A stretch of DNA of 59,390 bases, filler included, from 4 parts of 4 records of this genome joined end to end with filler, not necessarily neighbours in it; one strand, 5' to 3'; shown: positions 12,131 through 21,492, counted from the first letter of the whole stretch. Numbers and translations: made by a program. The notes: generated by a model from the letters alone, not told the origin.

Positions 12131-12805
12131 CTAAAGCGCGCCCTGGATGTAGGTGGCCTTGAGGTAGAATTCCTTGGGTCCCTGAATGTGGCGGCGGATG
12201 ATCGCTGCTAGCTCATCGGGTGCGCCGCGCGCGATGGAATCGATCATGTCGAAGTGCTGGCCGATGGCGATTTCGCGCAACTCTTCGCTGGGAAAGGCGC
12301 GGGTGCGGATGGGATGGGTGGCAAAGGTATAATGCAGGATGGCATCGGCCAGTTGTTGGTTGCCGGCTGCGCGATACAGCACTTCGTGAAAATCATTGTT
12401 GAGTGAAAAGACGTCCGCATAGCGCTGGCTGCGTGAGGCCTCGCGGTGGCGTGTTGCTATATCGGTCAGTTGGGCGACCAGTTCCGGTCCGGCAGGGCGG
12501 TCGAAATGGGTAGCAGCTCGCGTTTCAAGGCATTCACGGATTTCATAGAGTTCTTCCACCTCGGCGATGGAATAGTCGCGTACCTGCACGCCCTTGTTGG
12601 GCTGGCGTGCCACCAGGCCCACCCGTTCCAATTCATCAAAGGCGCGTCGTACTGCATGGCGTGTCGCGCCTGTCCGCTCAATGATTTCGTCTTCGACCAG
12701 ACGTTCGCGCGGTCGCAGTTGCCCGGCAATGATCTGCCGCTGCAGGTCTCGATACACCCCGTCCCAGCTTTTGGCCTGTTCCGACAGTGACTTGGCAACC
12801 CGCAT
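12131..12805 (-). CDS. GntR family regulator (FCD domain)
   Basis: VYRDLQRQIIAGQLRPRERLVE..TRHAVRRAF..GLV...PNKG, ELYEIRECLE, NNDFHEVL..AAGN, QHFDMI; GAGG RBS before ATG 12805. Confidence 0.95.
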   Translation of the reverse strand: MRVAKSLSEQAKSWDGVYRDLQRQIIAGQLRPRERLVEDEIIERTGATRHAVRRAFDELERVGLVARQPNKGVQVRDYSIAEVEELYEIRECLETRAATHFDRPAGPELVAQLTDIATRHREASRSQRYADVFSLNNDFHEVLYRAAGNQQLADAILHYTFATHPIRTRAFPSEELREIAIGQHFDMIDSIARGAPDELAAIIRRHIQGPKEFYLKATYIQGAL

Positions 12806-12872
12806 GCGGTCCTCGAATCCGTGCTTTCGTAGCTCGCAATCTAGCCAATTCTTCACAGCCATACAATCATCG

Positions 12873-12904
12873 TTGACATTATCGATAATCATGCCGATGA
12901 TAAT
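12873..12904. promoter_or_regulatory. Putative GntR operator overlapping a -35 box
   Basis: TTGACA at 12873-12878 abuts the perfect palindrome ATTATCGATAAT (12878-12889) in the divergent gntR/atuA intergenic region. Confidence 0.6.
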
Positions 12905-12923
12905 GACGATCAGGGAGGTCGTC

Positions 12924-18108: not shown

Positions 18109-19124
18109 CCGCGCACCCCATTCCGCTGCCGGCCGATCACGTCGCCCCGGTTTCGCAGGCCCGCACTGTTCTGGAGGTCGACAATCTTGGCCTGTCCCTG
18201 CGCAATGCCGACGGTCTTCTGCCTATTGTCACTGACATCTCCTTTGCCATCAAGGAGGGTGAGGCCGTCGCGCTGGTGGGTGAAAGTGGTTGCGGCAAGT
18301 CCATCACGGCGTCCGCCATCATGGGGATTGCGCCCGAGAACGCCGTCATCACCGGCACCATCACCCTCAATGGCAAGGTCATTTCGGGTCTGTCGCCCAA
18401 GGAGCGTCGTCGTCTTTGCGGCCGGCATATGGGTTTCATTTTCCAGGAGCCGATGACGGCGCTGCATCCCACGCTCTCCATTGGCCGGCAGATGACCGAC
18501 ACGCTGCGACACAATCTGGGGCTGGGCCATGCCGAGGCGACCAATCGCGCGGCCGAACTGCTCGACCGGGTCGGCATTCCGCGTGCTCGCGATATCCTGA
18601 AGGGTTATGTGCATGAACTTTCGGGCGGCATGCGACAGCGAGTAATGATCGCACTGGCCATCTCCTGCGGCCCCTCATTGATCATCGCCGATGAGCCGAC
18701 CACGGCGCTCGATGTGACCATCCAGGCCCAGGTGCTCGACCTGCTTGACGATATGCGCCGCGAACTCAATCTGGCCATGCTGTTCATCTCCCACGACCTC
18801 GAAGTGGTGGGCGATTTCTGCGAGAAGGCGGTGGTGATGTATGCCGGTGATGTGGTTGAGCGGGGGCTCAGTGCCGATATCGTCAGCGCCCCGACCCATC
18901 CCTATGCGCGAGGCCTGATCGACGCCGTTCCGGCCCATGACGATGGCCGCACAAGGCTGACCCCCATCCTGGGGACCGTGCCTCCGGTCGGGCAATGGCC
19001 TGAGGGGTGTCGCTTCGCGCCGCGCTGCACTCGCGCCGATGCGCAGTGCAACAGCCGTCCGGCGCTCGAACGGCACGGCCAGACCGATGCCCGCTGTTGG
19101 CACCCGCTGGAGGGCAATCGATGA
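18105..19124 (+). CDS. Peptide-type ABC ATP-binding protein (DppD/OppD-like)
   Basis: GESGCGKS, LSGGMRQR, IIADEPTTALD, HPY, C-terminal GCRFAPRC. Confidence 0.96.
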   Translation: MTAHPIPLPADHVAPVSQARTVLEVDNLGLSLRNADGLLPIVTDISFAIKEGEAVALVGESGCGKSITASAIMGIAPENAVITGTITLNGKVISGLSPKERRRLCGRHMGFIFQEPMTALHPTLSIGRQMTDTLRHNLGLGHAEATNRAAELLDRVGIPRARDILKGYVHELSGGMRQRVMIALAISCGPSLIIADEPTTALDVTIQAQVLDLLDDMRRELNLAMLFISHDLEVVGDFCEKAVVMYAGDVVERGLSADIVSAPTHPYARGLIDAVPAHDDGRTRLTPILGTVPPVGQWPEGCRFAPRCTRADAQCNSRPALERHGQTDARCWHPLEGNR

Positions 19125-20065
19125 GTACCCAAACCGTCCTGTCCGTCACGGGCCTTTCCAAGTCGTTCCGCGCCGTAAAGGCCGTGCGTGACGTCAGTTT
19201 CACCATTCCCAAGGGCAAGACCTTTGGCCTTGTCGGGGAATCCGGTTCGGGCAAGTCCACGACGGCGCGGCTGGTGTTGCGTCTCGTCGAGCCCACCACC
19301 GGCGCCATCAGTTTCCGCGGGCGCGACCTCGCCGGTCTATCCGCCCGCGATCTGCGTGCCGAGCGGCGCCACATGCAGATGATCTTTCAGGACCCGTTCG
19401 GTTCGCTCAATCCGCGCATGAGTGTCCGCGATGCGCTGGTGGAACCGCAACTTGTCCATGGTATCGGTACGCCGGCTGAACAATTGCGGACTGCCGAACG
19501 GTTGCTGGGCGAAGTCAGCATGCCCCGCGCCGCGCTCGATCGCTTTCCGCATGAGTTTTCTGGTGGCCAGCGCCAACGCATTGCTATTGCCCGGGCGCTG
19601 GCAACCAATCCAGAAATGATTGTTGCCGACGAACCGGTCAGCGCGCTCGATGTCTCGGTACAGGCGCAGGTGCTCAATTTGATGCGCGATCTGCAGGACC
19701 GGCACGGCACCACAATGCTGTTCATCTCGCACGACCTGCGCGTGGTGCAGTTCATGTGCGACGAAATCGGCGTCATGTATCTCGGCGAAATCGTCGAGCA
19801 GGGACCTCGCGACCGCATCTACGGCGCGCCCGCGCATCCTTATACGCAAGCGCTTCTTGCTTCTGCCCCAGGCAAAGGAAGCGGTCAGAGGGCGCGGCTC
19901 AAAGGTGAAATCCCCAGCGCGCATGCCGTGCCCTCCGGCTGCGCATTTCGGACCAGATGCCCGCATGCCTTTGCCCGCTGCACGACAGACAAGCCGGTGA
20001 TGCGTGACCTGGGCGGCGGCCAGAAGGCGGCCTGCCATCTCCTGGATGGGCGCGCGGTGGCATGA
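19121..20065 (+). CDS. Peptide-type ABC ATP-binding protein (DppF/OppF-like)
   Basis: GESGSGKS, FSGGQRQR, VADEPVSALD, HPYT, GCAFRTRC; ATGA overlap. Confidence 0.96.
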   Translation: MSTQTVLSVTGLSKSFRAVKAVRDVSFTIPKGKTFGLVGESGSGKSTTARLVLRLVEPTTGAISFRGRDLAGLSARDLRAERRHMQMIFQDPFGSLNPRMSVRDALVEPQLVHGIGTPAEQLRTAERLLGEVSMPRAALDRFPHEFSGGQRQRIAIARALATNPEMIVADEPVSALDVSVQAQVLNLMRDLQDRHGTTMLFISHDLRVVQFMCDEIGVMYLGEIVEQGPRDRIYGAPAHPYTQALLASAPGKGSGQRARLKGEIPSAHAVPSGCAFRTRCPHAFARCTTDKPVMRDLGGGQKAACHLLDGRAVA

Positions 20066-21492
20066 ACAGGCCCACAGCTGTCGATGTGCGCAGCGGTCAG
20101 GCGACCTATCGTGGGTTGCGGGATGCGAGAGGCGACCGGTTCCTGGGTGTCCGCTATGCGGAGGCGCCTATAGGGGATCGCCGGTTCAAGCCGCCGGTCC
20201 CGCTGGAAAACACCGGCCTGGTGGATGTCTCGCACTATCGGTCTGCCCCGCCCCAGACGGTCCGTCGCGCGCCGGATTGGGCGCCGCAGGGCGATGGCTT
20301 TGAAACCGGAGAGGATTGCCTGAACCTTAACGTCTATACGCCTGCGGCCGATGACAAGCGGCGACCGGTGATCGTCCACGCCTTTGGTGGTGGCTTCCAG
20401 AGTGGCGCGGCCCAGGGCGGGTTTCTCGATGAGGCAGGCTTTGCACAGGACAACGACGTCGTGCTGGTGCGGCCCAATATGCGGGTGGGGGCGCTGGGAT
20501 TCCTGCATCTGGCAGGAGCTTTCGGTCCAGAATACGCTGCTGCCAATCGCGGCATGCTGGACTTCATCGCGGTCCTGAACTGGGTGCACGACAATATCGC
20601 CGCTTTCGGCGGCGACCCCGGTAACGTTACGCTGGTCGGCATGTCCTCGGGCGCCTTCACCATTTCGGCATTGTTCGGCGTTGATGGTCTGGCTCATCTC
20701 TACCGCCGGGTCTGGCTGATGAGCGGTCCGGCCAGCCGCATCATCGCCCCCGAAACCGCTGCTGACCTGGCCGGAGATTTTCTGGAGCGCACTGATGTGA
20801 CGCCGGGTGACGAGAACGCACTGCGCGCGCTGGCGGTCGAAACCATCCTTTCGGTTCAGGAGCAGGTGCTGGCCACCCATCTGGGCGAACGCAACGCCCC
20901 TGGCGGGCGCACATTCGGCATTGTTCTTGATGGAACCAGTCTGCAGCGCCACCCGCTTGACGGGCTCGCCTCAGGCCGCTTCAAACACCATCAGATCGTC
21001 ACAGGCTGGACACGTGACGAGGCGCGTATGTGGTATGCATTCGGTATGATGCCTGAGCTGAAAGACCGCGACGCCCTGCTGGCGTCAATCGCCCGGTTCT
21101 ACCCGAATAGTCCTGAAGACAAGTTGGCGGCTCTGGAAACAGAAACTCCTGGGCTGACGTTTACCGAGTATGAGGAACGCTTCCTGTCGCGGGCGATCTA
21201 TCGGGACCCGGCGCTGAAGACGCTTGCCGTGCACCAGGCCAGTGGGGGAGCGGGCTTTGGCTATGAGTTCGCCTGGGTGCCTGGCTTCCAGAATGGCCGC
21301 TTGGGTGCAGCACATGGTTTGGATGAAGCCTTTGTCTTCGGTCAGCTTGATCGCGTGCCGTTGGCACAAAATGATGAGCGAGCGCCTCTGCTCGCAGGTG
21401 AAATGTCCCGCGCGCTAATCGATTTTGCGCGGGCAGGGGAGCCCGGTTGGGAAGTCCACGACACAGAGCGAAATCTGACAACCTTTGGCTAG
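20062..21492 (+). CDS. Type-B carboxylesterase (COesterase family)
   Basis: FLGVRYAEAPIGDRRF, EDCLNLNVY, GGGF, NIAAFGGDPGNVTLVGMSSG (GxSxG), DEA, AAH; ATGA overlap with the ABC ATPase; no signal peptide. Confidence 0.93.
   Translation: MNRPTAVDVRSGQATYRGLRDARGDRFLGVRYAEAPIGDRRFKPPVPLENTGLVDVSHYRSAPPQTVRRAPDWAPQGDGFETGEDCLNLNVYTPAADDKRRPVIVHAFGGGFQSGAAQGGFLDEAGFAQDNDVVLVRPNMRVGALGFLHLAGAFGPEYAAANRGMLDFIAVLNWVHDNIAAFGGDPGNVTLVGMSSGAFTISALFGVDGLAHLYRRVWLMSGPASRIIAPETAADLAGDFLERTDVTPGDENALRALAVETILSVQEQVLATHLGERNAPGGRTFGIVLDGTSLQRHPLDGLASGRFKHHQIVTGWTRDEARMWYAFGMMPELKDRDALLASIARFYPNSPEDKLAALETETPGLTFTEYEERFLSRAIYRDPALKTLAVHQASGGAGFGYEFAWVPGFQNGRLGAAHGLDEAFVFGQLDRVPLAQNDERAPLLAGEMSRALIDFARAGEPGWEVHDTERNLTTFG

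Follow-up and report, generated by a model that had tools for sequence, protein, structure and literature searches.

A conserved nine-gene unit of alphaproteobacteria joins a GntR regulator, a split AtuA pair, a family-5 ABC importer and a type-B carboxylesterase: a candidate operon for the catabolism of a conjugated organic acid

Positions 12131-21492 of a 59,390-nucleotide stretch of DNA (hereafter the window; four parts of four records of one genome joined end to end, filler included) carry nine genes, which family searches resolve into a GntR/FCD regulator and eight divergent, co-oriented and tightly packed genes for a two-part AtuA enzyme, a peptide-type ATP-binding cassette (ABC) importer and a carboxylesterase. 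We propose that this unit serves the catabolism of a small conjugated organic acid under repression by its GntR protein, with import, ester hydrolysis and AtuA-type retro-aldol cleavage as its successive steps, a reading to which we give an even chance of being right. The comparisons below also point to a new type of mobile, conserved operon, characterized by an FCD-GntR regulator with a predicted operator, a canonical split AtuA, a putatively non-peptide family-5 importer and a type-B carboxylesterase; no paper describing the nine-gene operon was found in the literature on the DUF1446/AtuA family, and the papers found under DUF1446 give no reaction for it. To our knowledge, only two members of this widespread family have an assigned reaction, the citramalate lyase CmlAB and the ThnQS enzyme of anaerobic naphthalene degradation.

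In the proposed pathway, the family-5 ABC system would import an ester (alternatively an amide or a carbamate), the cytoplasmic type-B carboxylesterase would hydrolyse it and the two-subunit AtuA enzyme would cleave the free acid that is released. The likeliest candidate for this acid is a carboxylate hydroxylated at a substituted beta-carbon, akin to citramalate, 3-hydroxy-3-methylglutarate or citrate, and a coenzyme A (CoA)-independent retro-aldol cut, by analogy with CmlAB and ThnQS, would yield a carbonyl compound together with acetate or another short carboxylate, products that could pass into central metabolism with no need of additional specialised enzymes. The regulator probably sits on the palindrome ATTATCGATAAT in the divergent control region, from which the free acid or its product would release it.

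Results

Conservation and distribution of the unit

Eighty genome loci were fetched with the large AtuA subunit (AtuA_L), and each of the nine proteins of the unit served as a tblastn query against them. The nine genes occur together, in the window order, in 20 of the 80 loci, which belong to Devosia/Devosiaceae, Rhizobium sp. BK313, Neorhizobium sp. LjRoot104, a Rhizobiales isolate, Martelella, a Hyphomicrobiaceae metagenome-assembled genome (MAG), an unclassified Proteobacteria MAG and two Rhodobacterales of the Paracoccaceae (Psychromarinibacter and Pseudoroseicyclus), and which span the families Devosiaceae, Rhizobiaceae, Aurantimonadaceae, Hyphomicrobiaceae and Paracoccaceae. Judging by the titles of the records, several carriers in Devosia (e.g. 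Devosia sp. Root436, Root685 and Root635), Neorhizobium and Martelella are cultured isolates. The window itself is alphaproteobacterial, and the AtuA relatives closest to its copy lie in Devosia loci (83-91% identity). Across the full clusters the lowest identity is 63% for AtuA_L and 50% for the esterase, and the GntR gene keeps the same position in all 20 (51-94% identity). Among the 80 loci the importer never occurs without the esterase, nor the esterase without the importer.

A reverse search from the esterase over metagenome contigs returned 47 loci, nine of them at 71-78% identity; six of these nine are full nine-gene clusters, two are ended by the contig edge with ABC genes directly upstream of the esterase, and one is a remnant. 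The self-contained unit described in the initial annotation is thus recovered with its esterase in 20/20 importer-bearing genome loci and in 6/6 metagenome contigs of sufficient length.

The whole cluster is also present on 259-kb repABC plasmids in two Martelella strains, directly beside repABC: in Martelella sp. NC20 (plasmid NZ_CP054862; locus L160, 1-13440) it begins 765 bases from repA, with an FtsK-like translocase gene on the opposite side, and strain NC18 holds a near-identical plasmid. A 917-kb replicon of Neorhizobium petrolearium carries the esterase with an ABC ATPase gene alongside, and the flanks of the cluster vary among genomes and are often sugar-related. In view of the plasmid copies and the changing flanks, the unit is best described, from comparison of the loci, as a portable, patchily distributed and self-contained module. 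In the nearest genome of the comparison set (G001) and eight genus-mates, AtuA pairs are only 45-50% identical to the window pair and have no importer or esterase nearby.

The recurrence of the same gene order in 20 genome loci over two orders and in 6 metagenome contigs, the tight packing with overlapping codons, the single control region with its conserved operator-like palindrome and the transfer of the unit as a whole onto plasmids make it very improbable that the importer-esterase block merely lies beside the AtuA pair with an unrelated function, even though the AtuA pair lacks the block in 60 of the 80 loci. Two further cases speak for such independence. Of 401 genomes sampled around G001, four hold an esterase match at E 1e-40 or better, and the sole homologue at 51% identity (G427) stands alone amid haem and cell-wall housekeeping genes, which weighs against a fixed functional tie. 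The metagenome remnant (L113, 1-7202) retains the final 78 codons of the OppC-type permease gene along with the genes for the other permease, the two ATPases and the esterase, with nucleoside-hydrolase-like and TauE genes at the expected place of the binding protein, AtuA and GntR; a rearrangement or a chimeric assembly could account for it.

The divergent control region and its predicted operator

The regulator has both an N-terminal GntR winged helix and a C-terminal FCD domain, and falls within the FadR/FCD subfamily. In the 61-bp divergent region, a promoter scan found a single promoter-like site on the operon strand, TTGACA (12873-12878) and GATGAT (12896-12901) separated by a 17-nt spacer, and within this spacer lies a perfect 12-bp palindrome, ATTATCGATAAT (12878-12889), which from its placement and conservation is likely to be the GntR operator. 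The sequence TTGACATTATCGATAAT, or a one-base variant of it, is found upstream of AtuA in all 20 full-cluster loci, the two Rhodobacterales included, and one or the other recurs in GntR-linked AtuA loci that have no importer and esterase (L040, L041, L054, L058, L059, L064 and L067-L069). Its 8-base core, TATCGATA, has a single occurrence in the whole 59,390-base window. The predicted operator is common to the esterase-type loci and to GntR loci of the TAXI type, described below.

The AtuA pair and its relation to citramalate lyase

The large subunit matches PF07287 with 442 bits (cut-off 22.8) over profile positions 2-436 of 437, and the small subunit matches PF23544 with 115.6 bits. The HGRSGDKG motif of the small partner is invariant in 37/37 aligned homologues, and 6 of 15 loci of more distant relatives encode both parts, fused, in a single continuous frame. 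The overlapping codons of the two genes, the invariant motif and these fusions together support the view that the two parts form one enzyme.

An alignment profile of 48 AtuA_L sequences (A1) was used for a profile search of the PDB and for hhalign. The A1 profile matches PDB 9erq_A/9evf (CmlA) with E 8.8e-8, an entry labelled 'Acyclic terpene utilization AtuA family protein | Citramalate lyase, subunit A (cmlA)'. An AlphaFold2 model of the large subunit (pLDDT 88.4, pTM 0.86) has 9evf_A, the 'Citramalate lyase - ADP - pyruvate complex', as its sole full-length Foldseek match (E 5.8e-20, probability 1.00, TM 0.66, root-mean-square deviation 7.0, 16% identity), the matches that follow being small ferredoxin-like or partial; an ESM Atlas search outside PF07287 gave no usable match. 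hhalign of A1 against ECs_0760, the CmlA orthologue of E. coli O157:H7 Sakai, gives a probability of 95.3% over 301 columns, and the clade-invariant residues R171, D174, E207, C208, Y267, E268, D271 and K312 are identical in ECs_0760. The window AtuA is accordingly a remote homologue of a solved lyase and resembles it in fold.

As to the reaction, a preprint employs the CmlAB enzyme to split citramalate into pyruvate and acetate, and a 2025 review (PMC12016498) lists ThnQ and ThnS as an 'AtuA-like lyase' that cleaves the CoA ester of a tertiary beta-hydroxy acid, an activity for which it cites unpublished work. In both reactions a retro-aldol cut is made adjoining a free carboxyl group, and on this ground the window pair was assigned to the retro-aldol type; since the unit holds no CoA enzyme, its substrate was placed among free acids. 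Lyase activity of the window branch is what we infer by analogy with these two enzymes. The view in the initial annotation that the reaction of AtuA is unresolved is outdated, given an AtuA-family citramalate lyase in 9ERQ/9EVF and the reported ThnQS lyase, which acts at a tertiary hydroxylated carbon.

Several observations weigh against extending this chemistry to the window pair. The window AtuA is only ~16% identical to CmlA, and single-sequence phmmer of AtuA_L against the PDB does not find CmlA. CmlA is peripheral in PF07287, scoring 68 bits where the window protein scores 442. As for the small subunits, their Pfam families differ (PF23544 only in the window, PF14330 for ECs_0759, the E. 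coli CmlB orthologue), and BLASTP of the window small subunit against ECs_0759 finds no similarity (E 7.8). The ADP in the solved 9EVF complex has no role that a plain lyase reading explains, and no relevant paper was found under the PDB codes 9ERQ and 9EVF (the CmlA structure) or 8VDX (a relative of the binding protein). Because the relation to CmlA is remote and the small subunits are of different families, the transfer of the reaction type is an extrapolation. The lyase reading also leaves two invariant glycine-rich stretches of the clade unaccounted for, GxGAGFSGD near the N-terminus and CCGPAGGGG near the C-terminus.

These stretches, together with the ADP of the solved relative, hint at nucleotide use, which a plain lyase would not need, and they favour the alternative that in this branch the pair has an activity other than retro-aldol cleavage and takes another step on the imported compound or on its alcohol half, such as a hydration, an isomerisation or a nucleotide-dependent reaction; the remoteness of the characterised lyase and the differing small subunits point the same way. 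We regard this alternative as unlikely, in that the eight clade-invariant residues recur unchanged in the CmlA orthologue, both characterised relatives are C-C lyases despite very different substrates, and in many loci the AtuA pair is accompanied by nothing but a regulator and a carboxylate importer, so that one enzyme must yield central metabolites.

Neighbourhoods of AtuA and the order of steps

Open reading frames (ORFs) of the 80 loci were clustered and representatives annotated, with the neighbourhood of AtuA_L taken from 5 kb upstream to 9 kb downstream. Within these limits, 18 of the 80 loci have a TAXI-TRAP system (NMT1_3 binding protein and fused DctM permease) and 18 have a TctC-type binding protein, mostly with a LysR or GntR regulator and with no other enzyme. 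The recurrent annotated neighbours in these 80 close loci include no carboxylase or acyl-CoA dehydrogenase, and regulators and transporters dominate; the statement that AtuA normally sits with atuB-H does not hold for this set.

The same survey bears on the possibility that an acyclic terpenoid ester is degraded as in the Pseudomonas Atu pathway. The family name and the strong PF07287 match would suit it, whereas the locus has no atuB-H-type genes, CoA ligase or carboxylase, none of these is among the recurrent neighbours annotated in the 80 loci, the regulator is of the GntR and not the TetR family, the importer is of the peptide/opine type, and sister loci have carboxylate importers. We consider a terpenoid substrate to be highly unlikely.

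In a quick maximum-likelihood tree with SH-aLRT (approximate likelihood-ratio) support only, all esterase-type loci fall in one 27-row clade (SH-aLRT 99), which also takes in the TAXI-TRAP loci L056/L070, whose sisters are the two esterase-type loci of Rhodobacterales, and the Devosia loci L040/L041, which hold GntR and AtuA only. This mixing of TAXI-TRAP with esterase loci in one clade, together with the common operator, argues that the regulator and AtuA pair are the conserved core and that its substrate is a free carboxylate; as TAXI-TRAP loci of the same clade and operator have no esterase, the peptide-type importer and hydrolase would be an exchangeable front end for a conjugate. We therefore infer that the core acts on a free carboxylate that some bacteria import directly, and it is mainly from such a core with swappable front ends that the order of import, hydrolysis and AtuA follows. 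The order of import, hydrolysis and AtuA action suggested in the initial annotation is supported by these comparisons, with its premises on AtuA chemistry replaced by those given above.

Other front ends are seen in Bosea and a Rhizobiales isolate (L087, 3586-14258; also L077 and L084), where the order is LysR, AtuA_L, the small subunit AtuA_S, M20 peptidase, gamma-glutamyltranspeptidase (GGT), a family-5 solute-binding protein (SBP5), two permeases and a second SBP5; by gene content these loci would be an amide-hydrolysing counterpart of the esterase design. As a separate observation, in Aliihoeflea and a MAG (L067-L069, ~5450-9190) a gene for a 1236-aa fused hydantoinase A/B (oxoprolinase-like) protein lies beside the GntR gene of a GntR/AtuA pair/TAXI-TRAP locus with the same predicted operator.

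The importer and the carboxylesterase

The importer is a complete Opp/Dpp-type family-5 system, with SBP_bac_5, two BPD_transp_1 permeases and two oligo_HPY ATPases, all adjacent. The N-terminus of the binding protein looks, by eye, like a signal peptide. The protein matches no named peptide, nickel, glutathione or opine binder (DppA, OppA, NikA, GsiB, CntA) above the NCBIfam cut-off and stays far under the equivalog cut-offs (87 bits versus 600 for Opp5A_nikA, the best; 26 versus 1005 for DppA; 54 versus 594 for GsiB), and its best solved relatives are 8vdx, an unnamed protein (E 1e-38), and then the agropinic-acid binder AgaA, 6hlx (E 5e-22). This profile is consistent with a non-peptide ligand and agrees with the earlier expectation of a binder other than an ordinary peptide binder, as its scores are not those of DppA or OppA.

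The esterase matches COesterase (PF00135) with 221 bits. S195 (in GMSSG), E320, H418 and the G109-G111 loop are invariant in 21/21 homologues, and the nucleophile elbow, the acid and the histidine align with those of the best solved relative, Est50 of Geobacillus (2ogs, E 1e-61); further solved relatives are TfCa of Thermobifida, the pNB esterase and then the cholinesterases. The enzyme is thus predicted to be catalytically intact, with a Ser-Glu-His triad and a Gly-rich oxyanion loop, and, as it has by eye no hydrophobic N-terminus, it was read as cytoplasmic. The nearest solved esterases (e.g. TfCa, E93) are reportedly promiscuous and give no pointer to the natural substrate, a point against the proposed pathway.

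On this point the enzyme could instead act as an amidase that frees the acid for AtuA from an imported amide, carbamate or peptide-like conjugate. The kept Ser-Glu-His carboxylesterase triad, the ester-hydrolysing nature of the best solved relatives and the position of the binding protein far below all peptide-binder equivalogs lead us to think this rather improbable; in its favour are the Opp/Dpp peptide type of the importer with its oligo_HPY ATPases, the related AtuA pairs beside M20 and GGT amidases and SBP5 importers, and a close solved relative of the esterase, 8xrz, that is said to be cited by a preprint on urethane hydrolases.

Hints at the substrate

Neighbouring genes in other genomes offer weak hints at the substrate. 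Genes for 3-oxoacid CoA-transferase A/B and acetyl-CoA acetyltransferase lie beside the regulator in Devosia L030 (6030-9126), L031, L032, L034, L035, L040 and L046 and just past the esterase in L043, and in Acuticoccus a CoA-transferase gene is close to the AtuA pair. In three lineages (L042, L047, L063) a gene for a glycoside hydrolase family 3 (GH3) beta-glucosidase stands right beside the cluster. The CoA-transferase/thiolase neighbours may hint that the lyase product is acetoacetate and, with the GH3 neighbours, weakly fit an acetoacetate-yielding acid carried on a glycoside, such as 3-hydroxy-3-methylglutarate. The Devosia cases may represent one inherited arrangement, and the window locus has neither a CoA-transferase/thiolase nor a GH3 neighbour. 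Like scoAB/thiolase and GH3, aldehyde dehydrogenase and short-chain dehydrogenase/reductase genes are near the cluster in some lineages only and were not relied on.

In its most specific form, the proposal would be that the AtuA pair of the clade is a CoA-independent lyase for a free di- or tricarboxylic tertiary hydroxy acid, e.g. converting 3-hydroxy-3-methylglutarate into acetoacetate and acetate, and that the operon strips the acyl group from plant or algal ester conjugates and catabolises it; we hold this to be speculative and rather improbable. If true, it would give a two-enzyme route in root- and algae-associated alphaproteobacteria, and sister loci would take up the same acid free (TAXI-TRAP) or from amide conjugates (M20/GGT). 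Fumonisin-type tricarballylate esters, carnitine esters and 3-hydroxybutyrate oligomers were also considered as substrates and dropped as unsupported.

Architecture of the locus and its surroundings

The coordinates of the unit are collected in Table 1. Its inventory bears out the initial annotation, which had listed eight co-oriented, tightly spaced genes with ATGA overlaps divergent from a GntR gene and had named an AtuA protein, a small HGRSGDKG partner, a full family-5 importer and a cytoplasmic type-B esterase: the nine genes have strong family matches and include four ATGA stop/start overlaps (at 14285, 18105, 19121 and 20062), the remaining gaps in the eight-gene run being 22, 3 and 1 nt. 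As had also been stated, family searches find no peptidase, CoA ligase, acyl-CoA dehydrogenase or carboxylase among the annotated genes of the unit. From the overlaps, the small AtuA gene is predicted to be translationally coupled to the large one and the esterase gene to the upstream ATPase gene. The large AtuA gene starts with GTG at 12924, preceded by the ribosome-binding site (RBS) AGGGAGG (12912-12918); the position of this start is kept in most of the 20 full-cluster upstream alignments and agrees with the gene model that RefSeq gives for the copy on the Martelella plasmid (455 aa).

Table 1. Genes and control region of the nine-gene unit (window coordinates)
Feature	Position	Strand	Support
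GntR-family regulator with FCD ligand domain	12131..12862	-	Pfam FCD E 1e-20, GntR E 4e-12
Divergent control region, 61 bp	12863..12923	.	Promoter-like site, palindrome, RBS
AtuA large subunit, 454 aa, predicted catalytic	12924..14288	+	PF07287 E 2e-132
AtuA small subunit, 126 aa, ferredoxin-like, HGRSGDKG	14285..14665	+	AtuA_ferredoxin PF23544 E 2e-33
Family-5 solute-binding protein, predicted periplasmic	14688..16256	+	SBP_bac_5 E 3e-59
ABC permease, OppC/DppC type	16260..17162	+	BPD_transp_1 and OppC_N
ABC permease, OppB/DppB type	17164..18108	+	BPD_transp_1 and BPD_transp_1_N
ABC ATPase, OppD/DppD type	18105..19124	+	ABC_tran and oligo_HPY; ATGA overlap with OppB-type permease gene
ABC ATPase, OppF/DppF type	19121..20065	+	ABC_tran and oligo_HPY; ATGA overlap
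Type-B carboxylesterase, last gene	20062..21492	+	COesterase E 4e-65; ATGA overlap with ATPase gene

The unit is flanked upstream by genes for an L,D-transpeptidase and an AAA_18 protein and downstream by a convergent ROK regulator and a sugar ABC system; these flanking genes are unrelated to it, and base composition across the region is even. The downstream sugar ABC system looks damaged (24938-28242), with a 118-aa ABC_tran fragment (26247-26603) after the permease, and the GC content falls to 0.55 in this part of the window. A PAS-rich chemoreceptor gene follows on the minus strand (26608-28242), in which only ~48 positions of the methyl-accepting chemotaxis protein (MCP) signalling domain are matched.

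Further along the window, a five-gene set at 28412-36210 encodes DUF2126 with transglutaminase domains, a circularly permuted ATP-grasp with an Alpha-E domain, a second transglutaminase-like protein and a Peptidase_Mx zinc protease, and by its domain content appears to be a conserved, poorly understood system of the peptide-modification type. DUF1513, imelysin (Peptidase_M75) and di-haem oxidoreductase genes stand in a row on the minus strand at 36207-39785, an iron-uptake-like set. At 41823-43281 a second FCD-type GntR gene lies beside a 189-aa ORF that matches the first half only of the DctP TRAP binding-protein profile and may be a truncated gene.

Discussion

The nine-gene unit is a minimal and apparently portable arrangement, in which a canonical AtuA pair, with a far stronger family match than CmlA, is accompanied by only one other enzyme. 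The initial annotation had valued it as an unusually clean context for assigning AtuA chemistry, a distinction since overtaken by CmlAB and ThnQS. Identification of the imported ester would assign a substrate to a large branch of AtuA, would reveal whether the family as a whole follows the retro-aldol rule at a substituted beta-hydroxy carbon, and would name a compound contested by soil, root and marine alphaproteobacteria. The loci compared suggest a modular design, in which one lyase core and one operator are combined with interchangeable front ends, namely ester importer with esterase, amide importers with amidases, or carboxylate importers.

Comparison with known systems

CmlAB of Raoultella planticola (PDB 9ERQ/9EVF) likewise pairs a large AtuA-family subunit with a small ferredoxin-like one, their genes being adjacent. 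It uses a free acid with no CoA genes nearby (as we suppose for the window pair) and has the motifs GRxxDPA, LLEC and LYExxDP in common with the window AtuA. It differs in its sequence (~16% identity), in its small subunit, which is PF14330 (DUF4387) as against PF23544, and in its setting, an island for glutamate fermentation that encodes glutamate mutase, methylaspartase and mesaconase, with no importer or esterase. A 'DUF1446' gene beside methylaspartase and glutamate mutase is noted in an earlier paper (PMC4682846). The CmlAB orthologues of E. coli O157:H7 Sakai, ECs_0760 (456 aa) and ECs_0759 (105 aa, PF14330), also lie beside methylaspartase and glutamate mutase genes. In RefSeq these two proteins (L108, 31934-33618) are named '3-methylaspartate ammonia-lyase' and 'acyl-CoA synthetase', respectively, and both names look wrong given 9ERQ/9EVF.

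ThnQS, from the anaerobic naphthalene thn operon of N47/NaphS2, was compared by its description in the review (PMC12016498). It is a split two-gene AtuA-like enzyme, reported to split a C-C bond at a hydroxylated tertiary carbon adjoining a free carboxyl, as proposed for the window pair, but its substrate is a CoA thioester and its genes lie amid beta-oxidation genes and a CoA-transferase gene. The AtuA of Pseudomonas (atuRABCDEFGH) belongs to the same Pfam family. There the large and small parts are united in one fused protein, and the window locus lacks the atuB-H genes, the TetR regulator and the CoA chemistry of that system.

In its overall plan the unit recalls the opine-type systems of rhizobia. 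In the AccA-F agrocinopine system of Agrobacterium, a family-5 binder and an Opp-like importer take up a non-peptide conjugate that is then split by a cytoplasmic hydrolase. AgaA, the binder of such a system, is the second-best solved relative of the window binding protein, and the cluster is similarly accessory and sometimes plasmid-borne; the relation to AgaA is weak (E 5e-22), though, and in the window the hydrolase is a type-B carboxylesterase and the next step would be AtuA. The Bosea loci (L077, L084, L087) come close in composition, with a regulator, an AtuA pair, one or more hydrolases and a peptide-type importer, and differ from the window in having amidases in place of the esterase, a LysR regulator and an AtuA of another branch.

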